From Verrucomicrobiota bacterium (GTDB lineage Bacteria > Verrucomicrobiota > Verrucomicrobiia > Limisphaerales > CANJXF01), in the NCBI GenBank assembly GCA_038214755.1, contig JBBQRQ010000047.1, positions 1 through 38,308 on the forward strand: DNA of 38,308 bases. Reading direction: 5' to 3'. Every line of letters begins with the position of its first letter. Position 1 is the first letter of the stretch. Positions 11,915 to 37,547 of this stretch are shown piece after piece. Made by a program: the position numbers and the translations under genes. Under the pieces are notes generated by a model. That model had not been told where the DNA came from, made no database searches, and worked only from the letters and a program-made list of their open reading frames with translations.

Positions 11915-12124
11915 ATGACAGCAGCCAAAGTGATTGAAGAAATTGATGATCTGTCTCCCGACGAACAGGCCAAAGTCATTCAACACGCTTTCAAACTGGC
12001 CCGCAGCCGTCAGCTCACCGCTGAGGAGCTGGGAAAATTGGCTGAAAGATTGGCCGAATCAAATGACCCCGCCAAAATTGTTCGTTTGAAGTCCGCGATG
12101 ACGCGCGGATTTTACGGTGAGTGA
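11915..12124 (+). CDS. Small helical hypothetical protein, putative antitoxin
   Basis: 69 aa; VIEEIDDLSPDEQAKV start typical of addiction-module components; TTGCCG-N17-TAATCT-N6-ATG upstream. Confidence 0.6.
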   Translation: MTAAKVIEEIDDLSPDEQAKVIQHAFKLARSRQLTAEELGKLAERLAESNDPAKIVRLKSAMTRGFYGE

Positions 12125-12127
12125 ATC

Positions 12128-12373
12128 ATGCCGACAATTCTACGCAGAAACCTGCCGCGCTCACTTTATGATCATCTGCTTGAACGCGTTCAACAGAGGG
12201 GAATTTCCCGCCAACAACTCACCCTATTAATCCGATGGCTGGATACTCAACCGGAGGTGCCCGTTGGAAAGTGGTTTAAAAAATTTCCCGGCATGATTAC
12301 GTGTGGTGAAGGTGAATTGATAAAAACTTTTCTATTATCTGGCCAGGTTCCGGTTGGAGAAGAGGCCTTTTAG
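12128..12373 (+). CDS. Small hypothetical protein, putative toxin
   Basis: 81 aa, starts 3 nt after the previous stop; [12 protein letters not shown] motif. Confidence 0.55.
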
Positions 12374-12443
12374 AAACCCTAGTTCAAAATATCTGATTGC
12401 GTTCTCTTACTTTAAACCATGTAACGATTTAACGCTTAAAACT

Positions 12444-13373
12444 ATGCCACGCAAACTCAGCTCCATCGCCCCCGATTGGTGGGATTATACCACGCTCGAC
12501 AGCGACATCATCAAAGAAGCCGCCAAGCTCACTCCGGAAAAATTGCTCAAACTTTCTCGACCGGGTTTCAAAGTCATTTTTTACGACACGCTCGAGGATT
12601 TTTATTGTGCTGAAGCGCTGGAATATATTTCCGCCTGGAAACAAGCCACGCCGGATAATCCTGTCGGCATTTGCGGCCCGATTGGGCCGACCGAGCAACT
12701 TCCCCTCGTCGCGCGCATGGTTAACGCGCTCGGCCTGGAACTTCACTCCGCGCACTTCTGGGGCATGGACGAATGGTTTCTCGACGGCAAAGAAATGTCG
12801 CCAAGTCACCCGCTCTCGTTTGAAAAAGCCGACCGCGAAATGTGTTTCAATCGCATCGAAAAGAAACTCGTGATGCCGGATGCGAATTTACATTTCCCAA
12901 AAGCCAACTCCGCTGCATATCGCAAAAGTTGGGATGGCGTTCGCTGCACGGTCATGCAAGGCGGCCAAGGCGACATCAAACATTGGGCATTCAACGATCC
13001 CCTCAAGCGCGAGGGGAAATACAAAAACAGTCCGCCGTCCCCCGAAGAATATCGAGAGCTTTCGACGCGCGTGGTGGATTTGCATCCCATCACCATCGCG
13101 CAAAACGCGCGCACGTCTGGCGGCGGAAATGTCACGCTCGTTCCGACAAAAGCGATCACCGTCGGCCCTGTCGAGACTTGGAAATCAGAAAAGGTTTCCA
13201 TCTGGCAGGCTGGCACGCACGATAATCCGTTTGGCCAACGCCTGACCGCGTTTATGATTTCCAAAAAGATTCCCGACGCCTCCGTGCCGATGTCATTGCT
13301 CGCCGATCATCCGAATGTTCAGTTCAACTATTTCCGCGGAGGACTGGGTTCGTGCGCGATTGAGATGCACTGA
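12444..13373 (+). CDS. Glucosamine-6-phosphate deaminase/isomerase (NagB-like) family protein
   Basis: [49 protein letters not shown]. Confidence 0.8.
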
Positions 13374-13415: not shown

Positions 13416-15446
13416 ATGCTCACCTCCGAAACCAAAAACCGCATCAACGCCTGTCGCGATGTCCTCGTCGGCAAACTTCCGTTGCCGACCGATCAAGTCG
13501 AACTCATTACTCTCGCGCTGATTTACAAATTCATGGATGACCTCGATGAGGAATCCGTGAAGATGGGGGGCAAACGCTCTTTCTTTATTGGCAGCATCGC
13601 GAAATATCGCTGGCGCGCTTTGCTGCCGCAGACGGTTTCCGCCGAGGAACGGGTAACGTTGTTTTCCGAAGGCGTCGAGGCGATTGGCAATGCGAAGAAA
13701 GCTCCGCATCTCCCGGCGTTGTTCCGCGATATTTTTCGCAACGCTTTTCTCAAATTCCGCGATGGCCGCATCCTCACGCTTTTTCTCAATGAGATAAACG
13801 GCTTCGCTTATTCGCACAGCGAGGAACTCGGCAACGCGTTTGAATATCTTCTGCAATGTATGGGCACGCAGGGCGAGAATGGCCAGTTTCGCACGCCGCG
13901 CCACATCATTGATTTCATGGTCGCCTGCCTCGACCCGCAACCGGGCGACACGATTCTCGACCCGGCTTGCGGCACGGGCGGATTTCTGGTTTCGGCTTAC
14001 AAACACATTCTTGCAAAAAACACTTCGCCCGGTTCCACGATTCCCGGCGACCGCCTCGATCACGAGCAACGCCAGCGGCTCTATTGCAATCTGACCGGCT
14101 ACGACATCACCGATCTGATGGTGAAATTGAGCAAGGTGAATTTGTTCCTCCACGGCTTTCCCGATCCCGCCATCCACATTTACGACACGCTGAGCAACGA
14201 CGCGCGCTGGCACGAAAAGGCCGACCTCATCCTCGCCAACCCGCCCTTCATGACCCCGAAAGGCGGCGTCACCCCGCACACCAAATTCCGCATCGCCGCG
14301 AAGAAGGCCGAGGTGCTCTTCACCGACTACATCGCCGAGCACCTCACGCCCGAGGGCCGCGGCGGCGTCATCGTGCCCAACGGCATCGTGGCCACGACGC
14401 AGAACGCCTACGTGAAACTGCGCCGCTTCCTCGTCGAGGACTCGCTCGTCGCCGTCGTCTCGCTGCCGGGGGGCGTGTTCAAGCCATACTCCGGCGTGAA
14501 GACCAGCATCCTCTTCCTCGACAAAAAACTCGCGCGGCAGACCAAGGAAATCCTCTTCCTCAAAATCACCGCCGACGGCTTCGACCTCGGCGACAAACGA
14601 AATCCCATCAAGGCCAACGACCTGCCGGAAGCAGAGTGCGTGGTGAAGGCGTGGTTGAAGGGAATGACGAATGACGAATGTCGAATGACGAATGGCGGCG
14701 GCATCGCGTGGACTGCCGTTGAGAAAAAGGCATTGCTCGAAATGCGCTCCGTCAGTCTCCAAGCTGAGGCGTTTCTCGGAAACGGGTCGGCAGCCACAGA
14801 AGTTGAAACGGTTTCGTTGGGTGAAGTTGCCACATTTGAATATGGGCACACGGCGACCGCAGCCGACGAAGGGGACGTTCGTTACGTTCGCATCACCGAC
14901 ATAAACGAGTTTGGCCGGCTTCGCCCCAACGATGCAAAGTTCATCAAGCTCGACAGGGAAGCGAAGGCTTGTCTGGCGTGCAAAGGCGACATCCTCGTTG
15001 CACGAATTGGTGCGACGGCAGGCAAGACGCTTCTTTTCGATTCCAATGAGCCAGCAGTCTTCGCTTCGTATCTTATTCGCATTCGCTTCGATCCTGAAAA
15101 AGTCTTGCCGGAGTTCTATTGGTGCTTCTCGCAGTCAAAACAATATTGGCAGCAACGCGACCAGTTGATTTCGGGAGGCGGTCAGCCGCAGTTCAATGCG
15201 AACGCCCTCAAGCAACTCGAAATCCCGCTGCCGCCGCTGGAGGAACAGCGGCGGATCGTGGCGGAGATCGAGGGCTACCAGAAGGAGATTGCACGCTTGG
15301 AATCCGAAATCGCCACGAACCGCGAACGCATCCAATCTACAATCGACGCCGTGTGGAACGGCAACTCCGAAAGCGCCAACGGCGCGCTGCCATCCCAGCC
15401 TGGGGCAACGCCCCAGGTCACGGAACGCAAGCCACGAAAGGGCTGA
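13416..15446 (+). CDS. hsdM: Type I-like N6-adenine methyltransferase fused to a single HsdS target-recognition domain (M-S fusion)
   Basis: GQFRTPRHII, DPACGTGGFL (motif I), NPPF (motif IV); then TRD (VSLGEV...GDILVAR...QPQFN) and IPLPPLEEQRRIV. The last ~24 aa derive from the inserted repeat. Confidence 0.9.
   Translation: MLTSETKNRINACRDVLVGKLPLPTDQVELITLALIYKFMDDLDEESVKMGGKRSFFIGSIAKYRWRALLPQTVSAEERVTLFSEGVEAIGNAKKAPHLPALFRDIFRNAFLKFRDGRILTLFLNEINGFAYSHSEELGNAFEYLLQCMGTQGENGQFRTPRHIIDFMVACLDPQPGDTILDPACGTGGFLVSAYKHILAKNTSPGSTIPGDRLDHEQRQRLYCNLTGYDITDLMVKLSKVNLFLHGFPDPAIHIYDTLSNDARWHEKADLILANPPFMTPKGGVTPHTKFRIAAKKAEVLFTDYIAEHLTPEGRGGVIVPNGIVATTQNAYVKLRRFLVEDSLVAVVSLPGGVFKPYSGVKTSILFLDKKLARQTKEILFLKITADGFDLGDKRNPIKANDLPEAECVVKAWLKGMTNDECRMTNGGGIAWTAVEKKALLEMRSVSLQAEAFLGNGSAATEVETVSLGEVATFEYGHTATAADEGDVRYVRITDINEFGRLRPNDAKFIKLDREAKACLACKGDILVARIGATAGKTLLFDSNEPAVFASYLIRIRFDPEKVLPEFYWCFSQSKQYWQQRDQLISGGGQPQFNANALKQLEIPLPPLEEQRRIVAEIEGYQKEIARLESEIATNRERIQSTIDAVWNGNSESANGALPSQPGATPQVTERKPRKG
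14662..14696 (+). repeat. Heptamer tandem tract in the M-S linker region
   Basis: GAATGAC GAATGAC GAATGTC GAATGAC GAATGGC (encodes MTNDECRMTNG). Confidence 0.85.
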
Positions 15447-16007
15447 AAGCCCGTCTCATCGCCGTGCCGCAATCGCTCGCTCTCGTCATCGTGCATCTGG
15501 TGTTCAGCAGCAAAGACCGGCAGCCGTTGCTCGGCACATCCGTTCGCCCCGCGCTCCACGCCTATCTCGCCACCGTGGCGCGCAACGCCGGGTGTGAATG
15601 CTTCCGCGTTGGCGGCGTGTCGGACCATGTTCACCTCGCGATTCGCGTCTCACGGACACTCGCCATCGCGGACATGGTCGAGGAACTGAAAACGTCGTCG
15701 TCCAAATGGCTCAAGACGCAATCACCGGAATTGGCGGGATTTTCGTGGCAACGCGGCTACGGCGTGTTCTCGGTCGGACCTTCGGACCTTGATGCGTTGC
15801 GTGCCTACATTGACGGGCAGGAGGAGCATCACCGCACCCGAACATTTCAGGACGAATACCGCGCCTTCCTCACCAAATACGGAATCGGATTCGATGAACG
15901 TTATGTTTGGGACTGAACGATGGGGCGGGCTTTCAGCCCTTGTGATTTGTTGGCCACGAATCCTGGGGCGTTGCCCCAGGCTGGGATGGCGACGGGCCTT
16001 TGGCCCT
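15372..16007. mobile_element. IS200/RAYT-like unit: Y1 transposase between ~90-bp inverted palindromic repeats
   Basis: 15372-15461 is the inverse of 15918-16007 (shared GCCATCCCAGCCTGGGGCAACGCCCCAGG and AAGGGCTGAAAGCCCG hairpins). Confidence 0.85.
15464..15916 (+). CDS. tnpA: IS200/IS605-family (HUH, Y1) transposase, RAYT-like
   Basis: MPQSL...HLVFSSKDR, DHVHL (HUH), K..SSKW, FSWQRGY, catalytic YI..QEEHH. Confidence 0.9.
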   Translation: MPQSLALVIVHLVFSSKDRQPLLGTSVRPALHAYLATVARNAGCECFRVGGVSDHVHLAIRVSRTLAIADMVEELKTSSSKWLKTQSPELAGFSWQRGYGVFSVGPSDLDALRAYIDGQEEHHRTRTFQDEYRAFLTKYGIGFDERYVWD

Positions 16008-16099
16008 CAATTAGCCGCCCGATGCAAATGCTGCCTACCGCGTCCTCACTTCGATGCGTAAAGGAAATCCCGTTACGGCCCTCACCTCGCCGCGTGAAC

Positions 16100-16255
16100 G
16101 AAATCCCGCTGCCGCCCTTGGCGGAGCAACGCCGGATCGTGGCGGAACTGGACGCGGAAGCGGCGCAAATGGAAACTGTCCGCGCGCTTATCCCGAAGTT
16201 CGAAACCAAAATCCAACGTGTCCTCGACCGCGTGTGGGGCACCGCAACAGAATAG
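16100..16255 (+). pseudogene. Orphan copy of an hsdS 3' conserved region
   Basis: EIPLPPLAEQRRIVAELDAEAAQMETVRALIPKFETKIQRVLDRVWG; similar to 15219-15360 and 18145-18273. Confidence 0.85.
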
Positions 16256-16296
16256 TCGCCAAACAAATTGCAATTGTTCAATATCCCGGAAACAAG

Positions 16297-17388
16297 ATGC
16301 GCACGCTGGAAAAACTGACGATTAAGAATTTCAAGTCCATCCGGGAACAGACGCTGGCGCTTGGCCGGTTGAATGTGTTTATCGGCGGCAATGGCGCGGG
16401 TAAGTCCAACTTGATTGGGGCATTCCGTTTTCTTCGGGAGATCGTGAATCAAAATCTCGCGGGCTACGTTGGAATGAAAGGTGGCGCGGACACACTGCTT
16501 TATTTCGGAAAGAAAAAATCTCCTGAAATGTCCTTTGATCTGGAGTTTGGCGAAGGGGACACCGCAAATGGTTATTCCGTCCAGTTGCGTAGCACGGATG
16601 AAGATAGTCTGGTGATTGTTTGGGAAACGGCGCTTTACCACGAGCGTAAAAAATATCCGAAGCCATTTAGTCTTCCGATTTCGTCCAGTTCCAAGGAGTC
16701 AAAATTGAAAGAGACGGGCCACATCTGTGCCCGTGAGGTGATGAGTGATTTAGACAGTTACCGAGTTTATCATTTTCATGACACCAGCGACACGGCGGTG
16801 GTCAAAGGAACCGGCGATGTGGAGGACAATCGCGTGCTGCGTCCACAAGCTGAAAACCTGGCGGCGTTTCTGTATTGGATCCAGCAGAAGAAACCAGATC
16901 ACTTCGCGAATATTCAAGATACGCTGCGCCAGATCGCGCCGTTCTTTGAAGAGTTTCGCCTCGCGCCTTCCAAACTGAACGAGAGCAAAATCCGGCTGGA
17001 GTGGAAAGAGAAAGGGAGCGATGCCTATTTCAATGCCTCGTCGCTTTCGGACGGAACATTGCGCTTCCTTTGTCTGACCACGCTGCTGCTCCAACCACAA
17101 TTGCCAGCGGTGGTGTTGCTCGATGAACCGGAACTTGGGCTTCACCCGGCGGCAGTGACGTTGCTGGCAGATTTGCTTTCTTCGGCGGCGACGCGCACCC
17201 AGGTCATCGTCGCAACGCAATCCGTCACGCTGGTCAATCAATTTGAACCGGAGGCAGTGTGGGCGGTGGACCGGCAAGATAATCAGAGCGTTTTCCGTCA
17301 CCTCAGCGATCAGGACATGACGACATGGCTCGATGATTACGGGCTGGGTGAACTCTGGGAGAAGAATGTTCTCGGCGCTCGCCCATGA
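16297..17388 (+). CDS. AAA_21/OLD-like ABC ATPase
   Basis: IKNFKSI, LNVFIGGNGAGKSN (Walker A), LSDGT signature, LLDEPELGLHP, QVIVATQS. Confidence 0.9.
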   Translation: MRTLEKLTIKNFKSIREQTLALGRLNVFIGGNGAGKSNLIGAFRFLREIVNQNLAGYVGMKGGADTLLYFGKKKSPEMSFDLEFGEGDTANGYSVQLRSTDEDSLVIVWETALYHERKKYPKPFSLPISSSSKESKLKETGHICAREVMSDLDSYRVYHFHDTSDTAVVKGTGDVEDNRVLRPQAENLAAFLYWIQQKKPDHFANIQDTLRQIAPFFEEFRLAPSKLNESKIRLEWKEKGSDAYFNASSLSDGTLRFLCLTTLLLQPQLPAVVLLDEPELGLHPAAVTLLADLLSSAATRTQVIVATQSVTLVNQFEPEAVWAVDRQDNQSVFRHLSDQDMTTWLDDYGLGELWEKNVLGARP

Positions 17389-18060
17389 GCAAGCGAGTGT
17401 TGATTCTGGTTGAAGGCCAAACCGAAGAACGGTTTGTGAAAGATGTTCTTGGGCCGGCTTTTTTTGACAAAGAACTATTTTTTCATCCGACGATTCTGAT
17501 GACGAAACGAGTTAAAGACGGGACGCGCTTCAAAGGTGGCGTGACGAACTTCGCAAAGTTTAAAAACGACGCTCAACGATTATTGAACAGTGCTGGTGAT
17601 GCGCTGGTGACGATGTTGCTGGATTATTATCGGTTGCCCTCTGATTTTCCGGGAATGAATTCGCGCCCGGCGGCAGGAACTCCAATGCAGCGGGTAACGC
17701 ATGTGGAGAATGCCATCGCTGCACATTTTGAATCCTCGCCAAGCTTTCTTCCGTTTCTCGCGCTGCATGAATTTGAAGCGTGGCTGTTTTCATCGCCCAC
17801 AGAACTTCCGCGTGCTTTGACTGAATCCCGGAAACAGCCAAAGTTTGAAGCAATCCGTGCCAGCGTAAAAACGCCGGAGGAAATCAACGAGCGCCCAGAG
17901 TTCGCTCCGTCGAAAACAAATCGAAAAGTTGTTTCCGGCTTACAAAAAAACTTTGCATGGGCCGACTATCGCGGCTCGGATCGGTTTTGAAACAATTCGT
18001 GCTGAGTGCCCTCATTTCAACGGCTGGATGGAAAAATTGGAGGCTTTTGCTGCCTCATAA
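17385..18060 (+). pseudogene. DUF4276-like (TOPRIM/RloB-related) protein with a +1 frameshift
   Basis: ILVEGQTEERFV, LDYY, HEFEAWLFS. Removing one A from the A4 run at 17913-17916 gives PSKQIEKLFPAYKKTLHGPTIAARIGFETIRAECPHFNGWMEKLEAFAAS*. Confidence 0.8.
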
Positions 18061-18065
18061 TAAGA

Positions 18066-18273
18066 ATGCCTTCAGAAGCCCAAGCACGCATCACGATCAA
18101 TCGCCTTCTTGAAGAGGCGGACTGGCGATTTCTCCCCCGACGCGCAACGTCGGATCGTGGCGGTGCTGGACGCAGAGGCGGCGCAAATGGAAACCGTCCG
18201 CGCGCTCATCCCGAAGTTCGAAAGCAAAATCCAACGCGTCCTCGACCGCGTGTGGGGCAATGGCGTAAAATAA
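18066..18273 (+). pseudogene. Chimeric remnant: hsdR 5' end joined to an hsdS 3' end
   Basis: 18066-18147 matches the hsdR start at 19360; 18145-18258 matches the hsdS-end copy at 16127-16240; one extra C in the run at 18134-18138. Confidence 0.85.
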
Positions 18274-18280
18274 TTCGCGG

Positions 18281-19360
18281 ATGAAACCTGCAACGAAACT
18301 CCAAATCCGAAACAGCACGGCAGAGTTCCTGATCTTCACCCGACAGGCGGGTGAGGACGGCATCGAGGTGCGGGTGGCGGAGGAAACGGTCTGGCTGACG
18401 CAAAAGCTGATCAGCGTGCTGTTCGACAAGGGTCGCAGCACCATCACCGAGCATTTGACGAACATCTTCGAGAGCGGAGAACTCGATGAGAAAGCAGTGT
18501 GTCGGGATTTCCGACATACTGCCGAGGACGGCAAGGACTACACGACGCGGTTTTACAACCTCGACGCCATCATCGCCGTGGGTTTCCGGGTGAACTCGGC
18601 GCGCGCCATCCAGTTCCGGCAATGGGCAACGGGGGTGCTGCGCGACTTCGCTATTCGCGGCTATGTGCTGGACAAAGAGCGATTGAAGAACGGCGCGTTC
18701 TTGAGCAAGGCGTATTACGAGAATCTGCTGGCGGAAATCCGGGAAATCCGGGCGAGTGAACGGAGGTTTTATCAGAAGATTACGGACATTTACGCCACGG
18801 CAATGGATTACAGCCCGGAAGCCGAGATGACGCAGACTTTCTTTGCCGCGGTGCAGAACAAACTGCATTTCGCCATCCACGGGCGCACCGCCGCAGAGTT
18901 GATCGTGGAGCGCGCGGACAGCCAGAAAGAGCGGATGGGGCTGACGACCTGGAAGAACGCGCCGCACGGAAAAATCCTCACACCGGATGTGGTCGTCGCG
19001 AAGAATTACCTCACCGAAAAAGAACTGAAATCGCTCGACCGCATCGTGACGATGTATCTGGATTACGCCGAAGATCAGGCCGAGCGGAACATCCCGATGA
19101 CGATGAAGGATTGGGCGACGAAGTTGAATGCGTTTCTCCAATTCAACGAGCGGGATATTCTCGATCATCCGGGCAAGGTGAGTCAGGAAGTGGCGAAGGT
19201 TTTTGCGGAGAGTGAATTTGAGAAATACCGGATTGTGCAGGACCGGTTGTTCGAGTCGGATTTTGACCGGCACATGAAGCAGGCTTTGGAAGACAAGCCC
19301 CTGTTGCAATCAAGTGGCGAAGTGGAATTGCCGCCGAAGAAGGGAAAGAAAAAACCATAA
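18281..19360 (+). CDS. Virulence RhuM family protein
   Basis: ETVWLTQK, YNLDAIIAVGFRVNS.RA.QFRQWAT, EIREIRASERRFYQKITDIYA, VQNKLH. Confidence 0.9.
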   Translation: MKPATKLQIRNSTAEFLIFTRQAGEDGIEVRVAEETVWLTQKLISVLFDKGRSTITEHLTNIFESGELDEKAVCRDFRHTAEDGKDYTTRFYNLDAIIAVGFRVNSARAIQFRQWATGVLRDFAIRGYVLDKERLKNGAFLSKAYYENLLAEIREIRASERRFYQKITDIYATAMDYSPEAEMTQTFFAAVQNKLHFAIHGRTAAELIVERADSQKERMGLTTWKNAPHGKILTPDVVVAKNYLTEKELKSLDRIVTMYLDYAEDQAERNIPMTMKDWATKLNAFLQFNERDILDHPGKVSQEVAKVFAESEFEKYRIVQDRLFESDFDRHMKQALEDKPLLQSSGEVELPPKKGKKKP

Positions 19361-21904
19361 TGCCCTCCGAAGCCCAAGCGCGCATCACAATCAATCGCCT
19401 TCTGGAAGAGGCGGGCTGGCGTTTTCTGCCCGACGCGCAAGGTCGGCGCGAGAACATTGTTTGTGAGCATCGCGTGACGCGGCGCACGTTTTCACCGAGT
19501 CAGGACTTGGGAAAAGATTTTGACCACGCGCCGGACGGCTTCGTTGATTACGTGCTGTTGAACACGGACGACCGCCCCGCAGCCGTCACCGAAGCCAAGC
19601 GCGAGAGCATTGATCCGCTTACAGGCAAAGAACAGGCGCGAGCTTACGCAGAGAGCCTGGGCGTCGTTCACATTTTTCTCAGTAACGGGTTAGTGCATTA
19701 CTACTGGAATCTCCGGCAGGGCAATCCGGTCAAGGTCTCGCGCTTCCTTCCGCTGGAAGAACTCGGCAAAGCGGCGGAATGGAAGCCTGATTCCAAACGT
19801 CTCGCATCGGTTTCCATTGATGAGAATTACATCGCGGTTTCACAGGATGCGGCGTGGCTGAATTATTCCGCAACGGATCGCGCGGCGGTGATGGTGAACA
19901 AAAAGATTCGCTTGCTGCGCGATTATCAAATCAAGGCGATTCGTGCGTTGCAAAAAGCAGCGAAACCAGACAAGCACCGTTTCCTTTTTGAGATGGCGAC
20001 CGGCACGGGCAAAACGCTTCTCAGCGCCGCCGTGGCAAAACTTTATCTGCGAACGGAAAATGCCACGCGCATTTTGTTTCTCGTGGATCGTTTGGAGTTG
20101 GAAAATCAGGCGTGGAAAAAATTTTAACGCCTATCTCGCAGCGGACGGAATTCAAACGGTCATCTACAAACAGAAACGCCAGGATTGGAAACAAGCGCAG
20201 GTTGTCGTCACCACGATTCAGAGCCTCGCCGCGAGAAATCGTTTTCTAACCGAGTTTGCGCCCACGGATTTTCAACTCATTATCAGCGATGAAGCGCATC
20301 GCACCATCAGCGGCAACAACCGCGCGATTTTTGAATATTTCATCGGCGCAAAACTTGGTCTGACGGCGACGCCCCGCGATTACATCAAAGGCGTGAAGGA
20401 CAAAGATCGCCAGAATGACCCGCGCGAATACGAGCGGCGCTTGTTGCTCGACACGTATCAAACGTTCGGCAGCGATGACGGAAAACCAACCTTCCGTTAC
20501 AGCTTGCTGGATGCTGTCCAACACGATCCGCCTTATCTCGTGAACCCGCTCACGCTCGATGCCCGGACCGACATTACAACTCAAATGCTCTCCGACGATG
20601 GTTACGCAATCAAAGTCGCTGCGGATGAAGATGGGCAGGAAGCTGAACTTGTTTTCACAAAAAAAGCGTATGAGCGAAAGTTTTTCTCTGATGAAACGAA
20701 TTTAAGTTTTGTCCGATGCTTTCTGGATAACGCGAAGCGCGATCCGCTCACGGGCGAGATTGGAAAAACCATTTGCTTCGGTGTGAGTCGCAAGCACGCG
20801 ACGAAACTCGTCACGGTTTTAAATGAAGAAGCGACGCGACGTTGGCCGGAAATTTACGCCGCAGGTTCGACGTTCGCCGTGCAAGTCACCTCAGATATTC
20901 CCGGCGCGCAACAGATGACGATTGATTTCGCGAACAACAATCTTAATGGCAAATCCAAGTGGAAAGCGGATGAGTTTCGCGATTATGACACGAGCCAGAC
21001 GCGCGTTTGCGTAACGGTCGGCATGATGACCACGGGCTATGACTGCGAAGATGTTCTCAATGTCGTGTTGGCGCGCCCCATCCTGTCGCCGACTGACTTC
21101 ATTCAAATCAAAGGACGCGGCACACGTTTGTTCACGTTCAAACACGACGGACATTCCGCAAAGAAAGACGGCTTTGCGTTGTTCGACTTCTTCGCCAACT
21201 GCGAATACTTCGAGGAAGATTTTGATTACGATAAGAAATTAAATTTGCCGAAAATAAGAGAAGGCGGAGCCGAAGGTGGCGATGCACCCGGTTCTCGACC
21301 AGAAACCTACGCCAACACTTCGCCCGATCCACTTGCCGGTCTTCTTCAGGAACAAATCGGCCAATGGGGAATGAAGATTGATCGCGAGATGTATCGCGAG
21401 AGATTTGCCCAACAAGCATCCGAAGCAGCGGCGACCGACGAAGCTTTGCGGCACGCTTTTGAATCGGAGGATTTGCCCGCGATGGAGGAACGTATTCGCC
21501 GACTTCTTTTCGAAAAGCCGGAAGAATTTTGGAATCTCCCAAAGCTACAACAACTTTACAAAACGGATCGTCTTCCCAGCTTGCGGGAAATCATCGCACA
21601 AGTTTTTGGCCTTGTTCCGGCGATTCCGACGCGCGGCCAGCTTGCCGACGAAGCCTTCGAACGATTTGTTGCGACACAGCGGACGAATGCGGTTCACAGC
21701 CGCGAGTTGCGCATGGTCTTTATCGCATTTCTTCTCGATCCGCTTTCTCGACAAATGTTGCAGGAAGGAAGGTTCGCAGAACTTCGAGCGCGCGATGCTG
21801 GTTTGTCCGGCGCTATGTCCAAATTAGCGCGTGAAGAATGCGAAGCCTTGTTTGATTATCTAAACTCAGAGGTCGCGCTCAAAGACTTCGAGCAAGCGGC
21901 GTGA
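19360..21904 (+). pseudogene. hsdR: Type I restriction endonuclease subunit R (DEAD-box motor) with a +1 frameshift
   Basis: DYVLL...EAKR nuclease, MATGTGKT, DEAHR, GLTATP, QIKGRGTR. Removing one A from the A6 run at 20116-20121 joins ORFs 19360-20127 and 19943-21904 (QAWKNFNAYL). Confidence 0.85.
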
Positions 21905-33529: not shown

Positions 33530-33577
33530 TTTCAGGAGTTGGCGCGAAAGCGCCGACTTCCTGAAATTTTCTTTTTT
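33530..33577 (+). terminator. Stem-loop with U-tract between the precursor and MNIO genes
   Basis: TTTCAGGA-GTTGGCGC-GAAA-GCGCCGAC-T-TCCTGAAA followed by TTTTCTTTTTT. Confidence 0.75.
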
Positions 33578-33583
33578 GAGTTA

Positions 33584-34441
33584 ATGCCCGCCAATCCTTT
33601 CAACAACTTCACTGAGTACGGCATCGGCATCGGTTTGCGCGTGCCGCATTACGAACACATTCTTTCCCAGAAGCCGACCGTCGATTGGTTCGAAATCATT
33701 TCAGAAAATTTTATGGTGGATGGCGGTCGCCCGCTGGCCGTGCTCGATCAAATTCTCGAACAATACCGCGTCGTCCAGCATGGCGTTTCCATGTATTTCG
33801 GTTCGTCAGAAAAGTTGGATCGCGAACACATGAAAAAATTGAAGCGGCTGGTCAAGCGGACGAAAACGCCGTGGCTTTCCGATCATCTTTGCTGGGGCAG
33901 CGCTGATGGCCGTTTCACTCACGATTTGTTGCCGATGCCTTACACGTTTGCGGCGGCAAGAGTAACCGCCCAAAAAATTCGTGAAGCGCGTGATTTTTTG
34001 GAAGTTCCCATTGCAGTGGAAAATGTCAGCAGCTACGCCGAGTTTCATGTTTCGGAAATGACCGAGTGGGAATTTTTGAGCGAAGTCGTCGAGCAAGCGG
34101 ATTGCGGCATTCTGCTCGACGTGAACAACATTTATGTTTCTTCGCGCAATCACAGCTTTAATCCTTACGATTATTTGAACGGTGTTCCGGCTCATCGCGT
34201 GGCGCAGATTCACATCGCCGGCCACACCAAATACGAAAAATATATTCTCGATACCCACGATCATCCCGTGCTCGATCCCGTTTGGAAACTTTACGCCCAC
34301 GCCATTTCGGCCACGGGAAAAACCGCCACACTTTTGGAATGGGATGCTCACATTCCGTCGTTCGACGAAGTTCACCGCGAAGCGCTCAAAGCCAATCGAT
34401 TCATTGAAAAGCTCGAAAATAAAAAAAGTCTTGCCGCTTGA
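33584..34441 (+). CDS. DUF692 / MNIO (multinuclear non-haem iron oxidative) RiPP maturase
   Basis: GIGLR..HY, WFEIISENFM..GG, HGVS, WLSDHLCW, DLLPMPYT, ENVSSY, LLDVNNIYV, QIHIAGH, DTH, LLEWD. Confidence 0.93.
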   Translation: MPANPFNNFTEYGIGIGLRVPHYEHILSQKPTVDWFEIISENFMVDGGRPLAVLDQILEQYRVVQHGVSMYFGSSEKLDREHMKKLKRLVKRTKTPWLSDHLCWGSADGRFTHDLLPMPYTFAAARVTAQKIREARDFLEVPIAVENVSSYAEFHVSEMTEWEFLSEVVEQADCGILLDVNNIYVSSRNHSFNPYDYLNGVPAHRVAQIHIAGHTKYEKYILDTHDHPVLDPVWKLYAHAISATGKTATLLEWDAHIPSFDEVHREALKANRFIEKLENKKSLAA

Positions 34442-35387
34442 ACGTCGGCAGACCGAGGGCGAACTTCGTCAATTGCAACAACTCATGGCGGCGTCAGTGA
34501 TGCGTCCGCTGATCGCTGGCGACACGATGAACCCACGCTGGGACGACGGACGCCCAACGAAAAATGTGGTCGCCGAATTTATCAAACCGAATGACCGCCT
34601 GACTTCTTTTGAACGCCTGGAAATTTATAATCGCCAATATTGGTTGCGCGTCATTGATTGTTTTCAGGAGGATTATCCGGGATTGCGCGCCGTTTTGGGC
34701 GAACGAAAATTTTCCCGATTGACGCTCGCCTATCTCAAACAATTTCCTTCCACCTCGTTCACGTTGAGAAATCTCGGCCAATATCTCATTGAATTTATTC
34801 GCGCGAAACCAAATTTAACGAAGCCGCATTTTCAACTCGCTCTGGACATGGCGCGAATGGAATGGGCGCACATTGAAGCCTTTGATAACGAAGCGAAGCA
34901 GCGTCTGACCACGGACGATTTGCTCGGAATGCAACCGGCGGAAATTCATCTGCGCTTGCAACCTTATGTGACCCTGTTGGAACTGGATTATCCGCTCGAC
35001 GATTTTTTAGTGGCCGCAAAACAGGAAGCCGGTTTGCGCAGCGAGGCCAGCAACGCAATTGAAACCAAGCGCAAAGTTTCGCCAGTCAAACCGCGCCAAC
35101 GTCCAAAAAAAACAAAAACCTTTCTGGCGATTCACCGCTACAACGACAGTGTTTTTTACAAACGATTAACTCTGTCGCAGTTCACTTTGCTGTCGGCTGT
35201 GAAAAATGGTTCCTCACTTGAAAAGGCCTGCGAAGAAACGCTGGCCCTCGAGGATTCGGAAAATATCGGAGACGAAATCCGCGACTGGTTTCAAAACTGG
35301 ATGTCCCTGGGCTGGTTTTGCCGATCACAGAATTTATTTCCAAACAAAACGGGAAATAAAAATCCCTATGGAGTAAAATATTTGTAA
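34431..35387 (+). CDS. DUF2063-type MNIO partner protein (RiPP recognition)
   Basis: ERLEIYNRQYWLR...F.EDYPGLRAVLG...F..L...Y....PS.S..L..LG, DMARMEWA; TTG start overlaps the DUF692 stop. Confidence 0.85.
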   Translation: MPLERRQTEGELRQLQQLMAASVMRPLIAGDTMNPRWDDGRPTKNVVAEFIKPNDRLTSFERLEIYNRQYWLRVIDCFQEDYPGLRAVLGERKFSRLTLAYLKQFPSTSFTLRNLGQYLIEFIRAKPNLTKPHFQLALDMARMEWAHIEAFDNEAKQRLTTDDLLGMQPAEIHLRLQPYVTLLELDYPLDDFLVAAKQEAGLRSEASNAIETKRKVSPVKPRQRPKKTKTFLAIHRYNDSVFYKRLTLSQFTLLSAVKNGSSLEKACEETLALEDSENIGDEIRDWFQNWMSLGWFCRSQNLFPNKTGNKNPYGVKYL

Positions 35388-35436
35388 CTGCGGGAATTCA
35401 TTTTTTCCTGCAAGTCGAACACATTCAAAAATTTTT

Positions 35437-36600
35437 ATGAGCAATTCCCTTCGCGCTGAAACCGCCGTCAAAGAACGTTACGCCGCCGCAGCGAAAAAAC
35501 CGGAAGCAGCGCTCTGCTGTCCCGTCGAATACGAACCGGAATATCTCGAAATAATTCCGCAGGAAATCATCGAGAAAGATTACGGCTGCGGCAATCCGGC
35601 GAAATATTTGAAGCCCGGCGAAACCGTGCTCGATCTCGGTTCCGGCTGTGGAAAAATTTGTTTTATCGCCGCGCAGGTCGTCGGCGCGGCCGGCAAAGTT
35701 ATCGGCGTGGACATGACTGATGAAATGCTGGAAGTCGCGCGACGCAATGCGCCGATTGTTGCGGAGCGGCTCGGTTACGCGAATGTCGAGTTTCGCCGAG
35801 GTCGCATTCAAGATTTAGCCCTCGATTTGGAAAAGCTCGATGCTGATTTGCGGCAGAATCCAATTGCGAACGCCGCTTCATTTCTCGCTGCGGACGAACG
35901 CGCTGAAGAATTGCGCATCACCCATCCGCTTATTGCGAGTGATTCCACTGACGTGGTCGTTTCCAACTGCGTCTTGAATTTGGTCGAAGCGAAATCGAAA
36001 CGGCAACTCTTCGATGAAATTTTTCGCGTGCTGAAACGCGGCGGACGCGCCGTGATTTCCGACATCGTTTCCGATGAAGAAATCCCGGCGGATTTGCAAA
36101 ACGATTCGACACTTTGGAGCGGCTGCATTTCCGGCGCGTTGACGGAAGAAAGATTTTTGAAAGCATTTGCTGGCGCGGGTTTTTATGGCATTCAGATTTT
36201 GAAGCGCGATGAAAAGCCGTGGCAAACGGTGGAGGGAATCGAGTTTCGCTCCGTGACGGTTCAAGCATTCAAAGGCAAGCAAGGCGCGTGCTTCGAGCGC
36301 AATCAGGCCGTGATTTATCTCGGCCCGTTTCAAGAAATTTTGGACGACGACGGCCATCGCATGGAACGCGGCAAACGCTACGCGGTTTGCGACAAGACCT
36401 TTCAACTCTACAAAAAAGAGCCTTTCAAAAATTACTTCGCGTTCATTGAGCCGCTGACTGAAATCCCTTCCGCCGAAGCAAAACCGTTTGATTGTTCGCG
36501 CACAAGTTTTCGGCATCCCCACGAAACTAAAGGACTGGATTACACCGTCACGACTGACGCGAGCCAATGCTGCGACGGCGGAAATGGAAATTGCTGCTGA
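35437..36600 (+). CDS. Arsenite methyltransferase-like SAM-dependent methyltransferase (long form)
   Basis: LCCP, DYGCGNP, VLDLGSG.G, GVDMTDEML..AR, SNCVLNL, WSGCISGA; C-terminal extension ending CCDGGNGNCC. Confidence 0.85.
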   Translation: MSNSLRAETAVKERYAAAAKKPEAALCCPVEYEPEYLEIIPQEIIEKDYGCGNPAKYLKPGETVLDLGSGCGKICFIAAQVVGAAGKVIGVDMTDEMLEVARRNAPIVAERLGYANVEFRRGRIQDLALDLEKLDADLRQNPIANAASFLAADERAEELRITHPLIASDSTDVVVSNCVLNLVEAKSKRQLFDEIFRVLKRGGRAVISDIVSDEEIPADLQNDSTLWSGCISGALTEERFLKAFAGAGFYGIQILKRDEKPWQTVEGIEFRSVTVQAFKGKQGACFERNQAVIYLGPFQEILDDDGHRMERGKRYAVCDKTFQLYKKEPFKNYFAFIEPLTEIPSAEAKPFDCSRTSFRHPHETKGLDYTVTTDASQCCDGGNGNCC

Positions 36601-36602
36601 AC

Positions 36603-37547
36603 ATGAATCGTTTCGACGAAAAACTTTCCGCGCACCATCTCGTACTGCGCCGCGCAAAATTGCAGACGCTGCAAATCAATGTCGGGCGCAAATGCAATCA
36701 GGCGTGTCGCCATTGTCACGTGGACGCTGGGCCGTGGCGCACCGAGATGATTGACGAAACAACGGCGCATCGCATCGGCGAGTGGATTGAAAAATTCCGT
36801 CCGGAAATTGTGGACATCACGGGCGGCGCGCCGGAGTTGAGCGAATTTTTTAAATACTTCGTGGAGACAGCGCGCGGTGCGGGTTGTCACATCATTGACC
36901 GAAATAATCTCACCATCATCGAAGAAAAAAATTTCAGCTGGCTGCCGGAATACTTGGTTGAACACGACGTGGAAGTCATCGCGTCGCTTCCGTGCTACTC
37001 CAAGGAAAATGTGAACAAGCAGCGTGGAAATGGCGTTTTTGAAAAAAGCATTTCGGCGCTAAAAAAATTAAACGCGGTCGGATACGGAAAAACATTTCCC
37101 CTCCATTTGGTTTACAATCCGCTCGGCGCGAATCTGCCTGGACCGCAAGCTGAGTTGGAAGCCGATTACAAAGAAGTTTTGCTCCGCGATTTCGGCATCA
37201 CGTTCAACAATTTGTTTGTCATCACCAATCAGCCGATTGCCCGCTTTGCCGAAGATTTGCGGCAGCAAGGCAAGTGGGACGAATACCTTGAGTTGCTCGC
37301 CAACAGTTTCAATCCAGCCACAGTGGAAAATGTGATGTGCCGCTCGACGTTGAGCGTCGGCTATCGTGGAGAGATTTACGATTGCGATTTCAACCAGATG
37401 TTCGGAATGCAATTGCAAAATGGAAAACCACTTTACCTTTGGGACGTTACGCCCGACGACCTCTTGAACAGGCCGATTGCAACAGGCATTCATTGTCTTG
37501 CCTGCACCGCCGGATGCGGCAGCAGTTGCACCGGCGCTCTGAATTAA
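36603..37547 (+). CDS. arsS: Radical SAM enzyme, ArsS-like (arsenosugar biosynthesis, Cys-rich tail)
   Basis: LQINVGRKCNQACRHCHVDAGP, DITGGAPEL, ASLPCY, MCRS, YDCDFNQM, HCLACTAGCGSSC. Confidence 0.88.
   Translation: MNRFDEKLSAHHLVLRRAKLQTLQINVGRKCNQACRHCHVDAGPWRTEMIDETTAHRIGEWIEKFRPEIVDITGGAPELSEFFKYFVETARGAGCHIIDRNNLTIIEEKNFSWLPEYLVEHDVEVIASLPCYSKENVNKQRGNGVFEKSISALKKLNAVGYGKTFPLHLVYNPLGANLPGPQAELEADYKEVLLRDFGITFNNLFVITNQPIARFAEDLRQQGKWDEYLELLANSFNPATVENVMCRSTLSVGYRGEIYDCDFNQMFGMQLQNGKPLYLWDVTPDDLLNRPIATGIHCLACTAGCGSSCTGALN

Follow-up and report, generated by a model that had tools for sequence, protein, structure and literature searches.

Defence genes embedded within the operons of type I restriction-modification (R-M), Hma, BREX and DISARM systems are described in the preprint of Payne, Hughes, Fineran and Jackson (2024, bioRxiv 10.1101/2024.01.29.577857), which also defines HEC-01 and PDC-S05, the families of the cargo considered below. 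Tested examples of embedding include TgvAB in the Vibrio pathogenicity island VPI-2 (PMC11411939) and DarTG2 between hsdS and hsdR in enteropathogenic Escherichia coli (EPEC; PMC12255303), with the latter paper terming the hsdS-hsdR site 'a potential recombination hotspot'. Here we describe a type I R-M operon with two cargo modules in a 38,308-nt stretch of DNA from a Verrucomicrobiota bacterium (contig JBBQRQ010000047.1 of assembly GCA_038214755.1), hereafter the window, which makes up a complete contig of a metagenome bin (175 contigs, 5.1 Mb, 97% completeness). Between the two modules lies a 208-nt chimera in which the start of the restriction subunit gene, hsdR, is joined to the end of the specificity subunit gene, hsdS. 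To judge from its sequence, this piece is probably (we would put it at roughly 0.6) the scar left when two versions of the operon, each with its own cargo, underwent an unequal, illegitimate crossover.

The locus resembles the published cases in having its cargo between hsdS and hsdR and in the operon's orientation. It differs from what the main texts of those papers cover (their supplements lay outside the scope), where the entry and stacking of cargo and gene-end chimeras are not described; in the main text of the Payne et al. preprint the words 'recombination' and 'remnant' have 0 occurrences. A full-text literature search, with supplements and subscription journals outside its scope, likewise returned neither an hsdR::hsdS chimera nor a stacking mechanism. 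Published work thus already covers embedding in type I operons, and within the literature so covered we found no account of the scars.

The gene row and its hsdR::hsdS chimera

Gene families were assigned by Pfam and PADLOC profile searches. The operon forms one co-oriented gene row (13416-21904) with the features listed below; a Y1 transposase unit, taken up in the last section, stands between the first two hsdS ends.

13416..15446, + strand: fused hsdM-S, 676 aa (N6_Mtase 3.9e-48 and Methylase_S 4.4e-17 in Pfam; MTase_I 5.2e-91 in PADLOC)
15219-15371, + strand: short-form hsdS terminal helix, as compared with L157, L173 and the transposase-bearing loci
16097..16255, + strand: spare hsdS end 1, a complete classical distal conserved region (stop 16253-16255)
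16297..17388, + strand: ABC-type ATPase, gene A of cargo module 1 (AAA_21 1.1e-36; HEC-01A 5.8e-142)
17385..18060, + strand: DUF4276 (TOPRIM-like), gene B of cargo module 1 (DUF4276 1.4e-34; HEC-01B 5.8e-56)
18066..18147, + strand: hsdR-start copy, first 27 codons (89% to 19360-19446, one gap)
18144..18273, + strand: spare hsdS end 2, last 44 hsdS codons (92% to 16126-16241)
18281..19360, + strand: rhuM, cargo module 2 (Virulence_RhuM 4.3e-110; PDC-S05 3.5e-154)
19360..21904, + strand: hsdR (ResIII, HSDR_N_2 and EcoEI_R_C in Pfam)

These matches agree with the gene identities proposed in a preliminary description of this DNA, and the gene order and the repeated hsdS ends and hsdR starts lie where it had placed them. 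The hsdM-S protein has the N6-adenine methyltransferase domain of a type I HsdM. In place of an HsdS with two domains and two helices, it has one target-recognition domain (a single Methylase_S stretch) fused to the methylase, and its open reading frame (ORF) extends into the left hairpins of the transposase unit. Half-size S subunits acting as dimers are known. In module 1, both models of HEC-01, a PADLOC candidate system, are matched by adjacent genes embedded in a defence operon, with the DUF4276 match spanning profile positions 1-161 of 192; RhuM is a full-length match to its family (profile positions 1-249 of 252 for RhuM / PDC-S05). The ATPase and DUF4276 genes overlap by ATGA, the restored DUF4276 stop (see below) lies 5 nt ahead of the ATG of the hsdR copy, the spare hsdS stop (18271-18273) 7 nt before rhuM, and the rhuM stop and the hsdR start share a single base. 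By this spacing, the genes of the row are apparently packed for coupled translation.

Three repeat pairs link the row: 16126-16241 with 18144-18259 (116 nt, 92%), 18065-18137 with 19359-19431 (73 nt, 89%) and 15218-15265 with 16099-16146 (48 nt, 88%). They are restricted to this locus within the 5.1-Mb genome and, with E-values of 1.5e-42, 5.5e-10 and 1.0e-25, are therefore not products of chance. A weak genomic match to the repeats on contig C11 sits among transport and metabolic genes and was rejected. The chimera, situated between the ATPase/DUF4276 pair and rhuM, consists of hsdR codons 1-27 followed by the last 44 hsdS codons, with the join at a shared GCAA within a 12-nt patch in which 9 positions are alike. 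As had been noted at the outset, an hsdS 3' end precedes and an hsdR 5' start follows both the ATPase/DUF4276 unit and rhuM, with short spacers. Therefore, each module is likely to have come from an operon of the same R-M family. The row does contain three hsdS ends, as first described; however, the one at 15219-15371 is of a different, short-form kind, with 43% amino acid identity to the other two. Spare hsdS end 1 forms the left border of the cargo gap and shares 74-90% amino acid identity with related two-domain M-S genes.

The pieces of the chimera have diverged from the resident copies in a manner characteristic of coding sequence. Over 24 codons, the hsdR copy and the real hsdR differ by 7 synonymous and 1 non-synonymous changes, reproducing the original count of 8 changes with 7 synonymous; over 38 codons, the two hsdS-end copies differ by 7 synonymous and 2 non-synonymous changes, so that of the earlier figures (6 and 2) the non-synonymous one holds and the synonymous one needs correction. 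The scar pieces differ from the resident copies with a synonymous divergence (pS) of 0.25 and 0.40 and a non-synonymous divergence (pN) of 0.023 and 0.018, giving pN/pS of about 0.09 and 0.05. Alleles of different genomes have a median pS of 0.29-0.44, comparable to the divergence between scar and resident. Since the divergence is almost purely synonymous and of allelic size, the scar pieces appear to have diverged inside working genes, in keeping with the initial proposal of protein-level selection in working alleles. The join itself would accordingly be young relative to the divergence of the pieces that it unites.

The junction was also recovered in an independent assembly, among the Logan contigs of run X1, the likely source run. 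One of these contigs (2857 nt) spans 15398-18254 across the hsdR::hsdS junction with 0 differences, and a second covers 18225-21211; their depths are 24.8 and 23.3. Given that an X1 contig spans the junction and that the four common bases, GCAA, offer an assembler far too little to join upon, the scar is real DNA.

The cargo slot and recurrent probable scars in related operons

To place the window among its relatives, loci (labelled L) were collected from species genomes with the M-S protein (80) and from metagenomes with the C-terminal part of HsdR (80), and the window's proteins were mapped onto them. Seventy-eight sequences, the window counted, have M-S followed by hsdR with a recognisable hsdR start. 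Another 44, from other phyla, have the reversed order with hsdR ahead of M-S, and the sequences beyond these are cut. The usual M-S protein of about 820 aa is composed of a methylase, recognition domain 1, a central helix, recognition domain 2 and a distal helix. The short form, with one recognition domain and a terminal helix of its own (...IDAVWNGESE), also occurs in L157, L172 and L173, and in the last two it is directly followed by hsdR.

As the preliminary description had anticipated, the gap of homologous M-S/hsdR loci is occupied by differing cargo. It could be measured in 56 distinct loci that show a classical hsdS end: between hsdS and hsdR, 9 are empty (19-33 nt); filled gaps measure 114-4003 nt, and the median across all 56 is 1768. 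The cargo is varied and defence-like in character, and includes Schlafen/AlbA_2, DUF488, Macro, DarT, DarT with Macro, M78 with DUF4411, PIN, Abi_2, Fic, AAA_21 pairs and AAA_21 with DUF4276, with Pfam matches obtained for 33 of the 63 cargo ORFs (32 loci); many of the unmatched ones are antisense ORFs of GC-rich DNA. For instance, rhuM is the sole cargo in L174 and is also found within L204, L171 and L168. Hence, operons of this R-M family have a slot for variable cargo between the hsdS stop and the hsdR start. The complete operon, too, is found in differing genomic surroundings among the relatives.

To search for scars, the first 100 nt of each locus's own hsdR were compared with up to 7 kb upstream of the real start. 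Upstream hsdR-start copies are present in 6 of the 77 loci (the window, L160, L167, L178, L184 and L185), where they form four junction types; the recurrence of such remnants had likewise been anticipated. In 68 of the 77 no match was found, and weak matches in L082, L093 and L207 (21-30 nt, E 5e-4 to 7e-3) were attributed to chance or to resemblance to the hsdM start and rejected.

The other three junction types differ from that of the window in their composition. L167 and L178 have hsdR codons 1-16 joined in frame to the last about 30 hsdS codons, with the chimera lying between a pair of AAA_21 and a 296-aa protein and a pair of AAA_21 and DUF4276. In L184 and L185, hsdR codons 1-17 are joined out of frame to the last about 14 hsdS codons, and the stop of the small chimeric ORF overlaps the start of a rhuM that is 91% identical to the window's. 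In L160, an M78 and PemK pair is followed by a DUF4325 cargo gene to which hsdR codons 1-13 are fused in frame. At most 1-2 bases are common at the join in L167 and L184, and the parent sequences at the join are known for one side of L167 only. Three of the four chimeras are in frame, which by our own arithmetic has a probability of about 0.11 by chance, and we make no claim of it. The four stacked loci never have more than two modules.

Near-isogenic loci show what a stacked operon looks like beside a simple one. L059 has one cargo unit, and L167 has the same unit behind the scar together with a second unit. A stretch of 3.5 kb that opens exactly at hsdS codon -25 and takes in the ATPase/DUF4276 pair and hsdR is 99.1% alike in these loci; their upstream flanks are 97.5% alike, and the intervening 3.1 kb is replaced. 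Similarly, a contig of run X2, from another study, has a DUF4276 gene 95.5% alike to the window's, directly followed by an hsdR 5' end that continues unbroken for at least 36 codons. Thus, single-cargo forms exist alongside stacked forms. The hsdR of L059 is itself interrupted by about 2.4 kb of inserted DNA (L059:16042-18466).

Extra hsdS ends that are not accompanied by an hsdR piece bring the total to 3 in L057 and to 4 in L096, where two are 94% alike and represent a local duplication. These ends stand in rows with no genes between them (L096:1600-2750 and L057:3060-3810), and their separators resemble a dispersed, hairpin-rich repeat. An element upstream of the last remnant in L057 also precedes the first remnant in L096.

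Origin of the stack

The chimera joins sequences that have no real homology, implying an illegitimate join. Under the crossover reading, cargo would usually be exchanged among alleles through homologous recombination within hsdR and the conserved end of hsdS, a process that should be traceless. Occasionally, with little or no microhomology, the hsdR 5' end of one allele would instead be joined to the hsdS 3' end or the cargo of the other, and the remaining side of the crossover would be resolved by homology, either in hsdR or in M-S and its flank. Alternatively, an identical product would arise if a circularised fragment were integrated in Campbell fashion, through one homologous crossover. 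The module would in this way be added rather than replaced, and a chimera would be left behind. With the hsdR start codon and the hsdS stop and its spacer all preserved in the scar, translation could run on into the next gene, and the stacked operon would stay expressed. The shortness of the hsdR heads (13-27 codons) would fit a clean, scarless replacement of longer overlaps by homologous recombination, and is in part a bias of the search.

Two known processes come close to this model. The minimal mobile elements of Neisseria are cassettes between conserved flanking genes that are swapped by homologous recombination, and the slot described here corresponds to them in that the cassettes between its two conserved genes change from genome to genome and no mobility gene is present. 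It differs in that one border is sometimes illegitimate, yielding stacked cassettes and a chimera of the flanking genes, and in that the whole R-M locus varies in its genomic context. Homology-facilitated illegitimate recombination, reportedly described by de Vries and Wackernagel in 2002 in transformable bacteria, likewise combines one homologous anchor with a join at short or no microhomology. Here it serves as a model for the scars and is not itself a finding.

Several observations weigh against the crossover. The nearest relatives of the scar pieces among all alleles are the window's own copies (92% and 89%), with at most 84% and 83% reached elsewhere, which would also fit an old in-place duplication or gene conversion; by this measure the pieces are not very 'foreign', contrary to the initial view. 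No donor allele of the same family was found that is close in sequence to the window's rhuM, the best match (91% amino acid identity) being that of L184, which is itself stacked. Of 401 genomes of the order, 123 have a rhuM; the closest of these genes sit in other contexts, and the best 29 loci have no hsdS end or hsdR start of this family adjoining. The L184 scar is an internal subset of the window's and could be a later deletion rather than an independent event, while L060, L079 and L094 have two cargo units without a scar, so that either stacking need not leave one or the units are single systems. The two X1 contigs overlap by 30 nt only (18225-18254), where hsdS ends of other organisms contribute to the depth, so that it is the original assembly and the equal depth that connect the scar to rhuM. 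The counts are drawn from metagenome contigs and metagenome-assembled genomes, many of them cut close to the locus, and either cargo may have been the resident one, with either direction and more than one pathway possible for the event.

These points have to be set against the alternatives, each of which explains part of the pattern. Were two complete operons once in tandem, one with M-S, ATPase/DUF4276 and hsdR and the next with M-S, rhuM and hsdR, a deletion from codon 28 of the first hsdR up to the last 44 codons of the second hsdS would leave a product that looks identical, and such a history would suit a family in which large deletions are common (L186, L213, L222, L091) and a window operon that is decaying with two frameshifts. 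We nonetheless consider it unlikely: two complete systems in tandem occur in 0 of the 78 loci, all four junctions keep 13-27 hsdR codons, as random deletions would not, and the single-cargo L059 and X2 contig are simple forms rather than products of a tandem deletion. Moreover, long homologous operons in tandem would be expected to collapse by ordinary recombination. The closeness of the scar pieces to the window's own copies, along with the 12-nt patch at the junction with its 9 like positions, would fit an in-place duplication of hsdS end to hsdR start by microhomology slippage, after which one cargo was replaced by homologous recombination with a foreign allele. This seems slightly less probable again, as it requires two rare steps with an unstable first product, the same cargo is present twice in 0 of the 78 loci, and a pS of 0.25-0.40, which is allele-sized (median 0.29-0.44) and almost purely synonymous, is unlike a dead scar diverging in place. 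That the assembler joined two strains with one cargo each is very improbable. The genome is indeed a 175-contig metagenome bin, and the contigs of the likely source run end at 18225-18254, within a spare hsdS end with words common to other organisms; however, the 2857-nt contig bridges the junction at a depth equal to that of its neighbour, the junction words have only 4 nt in common, the scar after DUF4276 persists even if the join at 18225-18254 is wrong, and the same architecture recurs in independent samples (L167 and L178; L184 and L185).

The preliminary description had gone further and read the locus as an integron-like array built by a dedicated capture system that recombines at the conserved end of hsdS and the conserved start of hsdR. 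What it stated or anticipated of module borders, allelic divergence, cargo variety and the recurrence of remnants is supported, and both the retention of the two gene ends by the modules and the hsdR-start remnants in 6 of 77 loci are in its favour, as are the rows of hsdS ends in L057 (3) and L096 (4), most of which begin within about 10 nt of CAACG in the EQRRIVA motif. The locus is also like an integron in its single-orientation cargo behind one operon start and in the short repeated elements between units. However, the junctions fall at hsdR codons 27, 16, 17 and 13, retain the last 44, about 30, about 14 or none of the hsdS codons, and in one case lie inside a cargo gene; the four stacked loci have at most two modules each, and 68 of the 77 loci gave no hsdR-start match. 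In contrast to integrons, there is no common border site, the junctions varying by case in hsdR, hsdS or cargo (no attC model was run), and the repeats are pieces of the flanking genes. In agreement with the description of the locus as integrase-free, no IntI tyrosine integrase or other integrase family, other recombinase or tRNA was found in the window (12 + 28 ORFs and a tRNA scan), and the Y1 transposase is absent from the examined stretches of L160, L167, L178, L184 and L185. The source-run contigs, which could not show rare variants, contain no cassette-loss or circle joints and no cassette-number variants. A dedicated system of this kind is, in our assessment, decidedly unlikely.

If the crossover reading is correct, the gene-end chimeras would be physical traces of the gain and stacking of embedded defence genes. 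Embedding in restriction operons already serves the discovery of new systems ('guilt by embedding'), and the chimeras suggest in addition that sister alleles of the operon are the source of the cargo, with the neighbours' ends included, and that stacking may proceed without a dedicated enzyme. In practice, they might be used to delimit cargo units, to date gains and to find stacks via hsdR starts that have no hsdR after them, and the scar model offers a testable account of immune-gene turnover. More tentatively, it is possible that type I restriction operons act as integrase-free cassette platforms, in which the hsdS and hsdR ends travel as portable homology arms and translation couplers, ordinary recombination swaps the units and rare illegitimate joins stack them, providing a general route, across phyla, for defence islands to grow within operons.

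The Y1 unit, operon decay and neighbouring features

Two further features lie upstream of the first cargo module:

15372..16007, + strand: Y1 (IS200-like, RAYT-like) transposase unit (gene 15443-15916, Y1_Tnp 6.4e-25)
16044..16115, + strand: 36-nt imperfect tandem duplication (repeat, 78%) covering the beginning of spare hsdS end 1

The Y1 unit encodes a 157-aa Y1_Tnp protein with inverted hairpin flanks (15372-15461 and 15918-16007), and in this it resembles the TnpA of IS200/IS605 elements and the RAYT proteins associated with repetitive extragenic palindromes (REP). Unlike in REP-RAYT systems, the flank repeat is not dispersed: the 5.1-Mb, 97% complete bin has only the two flanking arms and no copy elsewhere. 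The unit is instead fixed inside the R-M operon in 10 loci (the window, L047, L050, L055, L056, L058, L068, L094, L204 and L190), where the gene has 75-80% amino acid identity to the window's. In all of them it lies 3' of a short-form hsdS end, and in nine it stands 10-25 nt (about 90 in the window) before a complete classical end; in L190 the classical end behind Y1 is cut short. In L197, Y1 lies in the cargo gap. As the unit has this fixed place in 10 loci, it is not a cassette of the hsdS-end/hsdR-start kind, and no hsdR start follows it. The 36-nt duplication is not seen in the other transposase-bearing loci in an alignment of the 10.

The hsdS end behind Y1 has a pN/pS of 0.23 in nine loci, as against 0.33 for working ends, and in 9 of 9 its frame is open back through the hairpins, with a common in-frame ATG within the right hairpin. 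Hence, this supposedly untranslated end appears to be under protein-like constraint, and it may be either expressed as a small helix protein or renewed at each cargo swap. We had considered a single hsdS with the transposase in place of its second recognition domain, 15219-15360 being the central and 16097-16255 the distal helix, and dropped this in its simple form, since 15219-15371 is a separate short-form end that occurs without a transposase in L157, L172 and L173. Contig joints from 15418 to 15960-15964, with sides of 22-29 nt in palindromic hairpins, were taken as other hairpin copies and set aside.

Three single-base insertions are present in the window, all in homopolymer runs. In DUF4276, an extra A in the run 17913-17916 makes the current ORF end at 17990, with the conserved C-terminus, which matches L091 and L060, continuing in the +1 frame to 18060; the X2 contig has no extra A. 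In hsdR, an extra A in the run 20116-20121 produces a stop at 20125-20127 (codon 255), splitting the gene into ORFs at 19360-20127 and 19943-21904; against L056, L053 and L184, the gene aligns with just one gap, of 1 nt. The domains of an HsdR helicase-nuclease are thus present in a broken frame. The third insertion, which we read as an extra C in the run 18134-18138 of the hsdR copy, puts the chimera out of frame; without it, the hsdR copy would read through into the hsdS copy. We take the frameshifts in DUF4276 and hsdR as real because the independently built X1 contigs carry them. The restriction subunit and one cargo gene (DUF4276) therefore look inactive, and on the sequence evidence the window's operon is probably decaying.

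Operons of this R-M family often decay. In L186 a deletion joins M codon 81 to the middle of hsdR, in L213 and L222 a large deletion joins M to about codon 305 of hsdR, and in L091 most of M-S is gone with cargo and hsdR retained. In L169 (5113-7728), a part of M-S comprising the end of the methylase, a recognition domain and both helices lies in reverse orientation between an hsdM start and hsdR, which may reflect an inversion or a shuffling system.

Within the window's hsdM-S, the contigs of the likely source run reach a summed depth of about 2170 at 14385-14701, with many loose ends at 14661-14696. This bin is the boundary of the methylase part and the recognition domain and contains a short word common to very many sequences of the sample. 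The first codons of hsdM-S (13423-13446) resemble 19364-19387 in hsdR (24 nt, 79% at the DNA level), and the weak hsdR-start matches to the hsdM start in L082 and L093 may share the cause of this likeness.

Elsewhere in the genome, a second rhuM on contig C8 (L237:8821-13081), 49% identical to that of the window and not in a type I operon, directly precedes a DEAD/ResIII helicase and a DprA-like (SLOG) gene, and could be part of another defence-type cluster. Upstream of the operon, two small ORFs at 11915-12373 (69 and 81 aa) have no Pfam match and could form a toxin-antitoxin-like pair; the ORFs at 11915-13373 were not found beside the operon in its relatives. Further downstream (33539-37547), an MbnB/TglH-family enzyme, its DUF2063 partner, a methyltransferase and a radical SAM/DUF3641 gene stand in a row that looks like a peptide-modification cluster.

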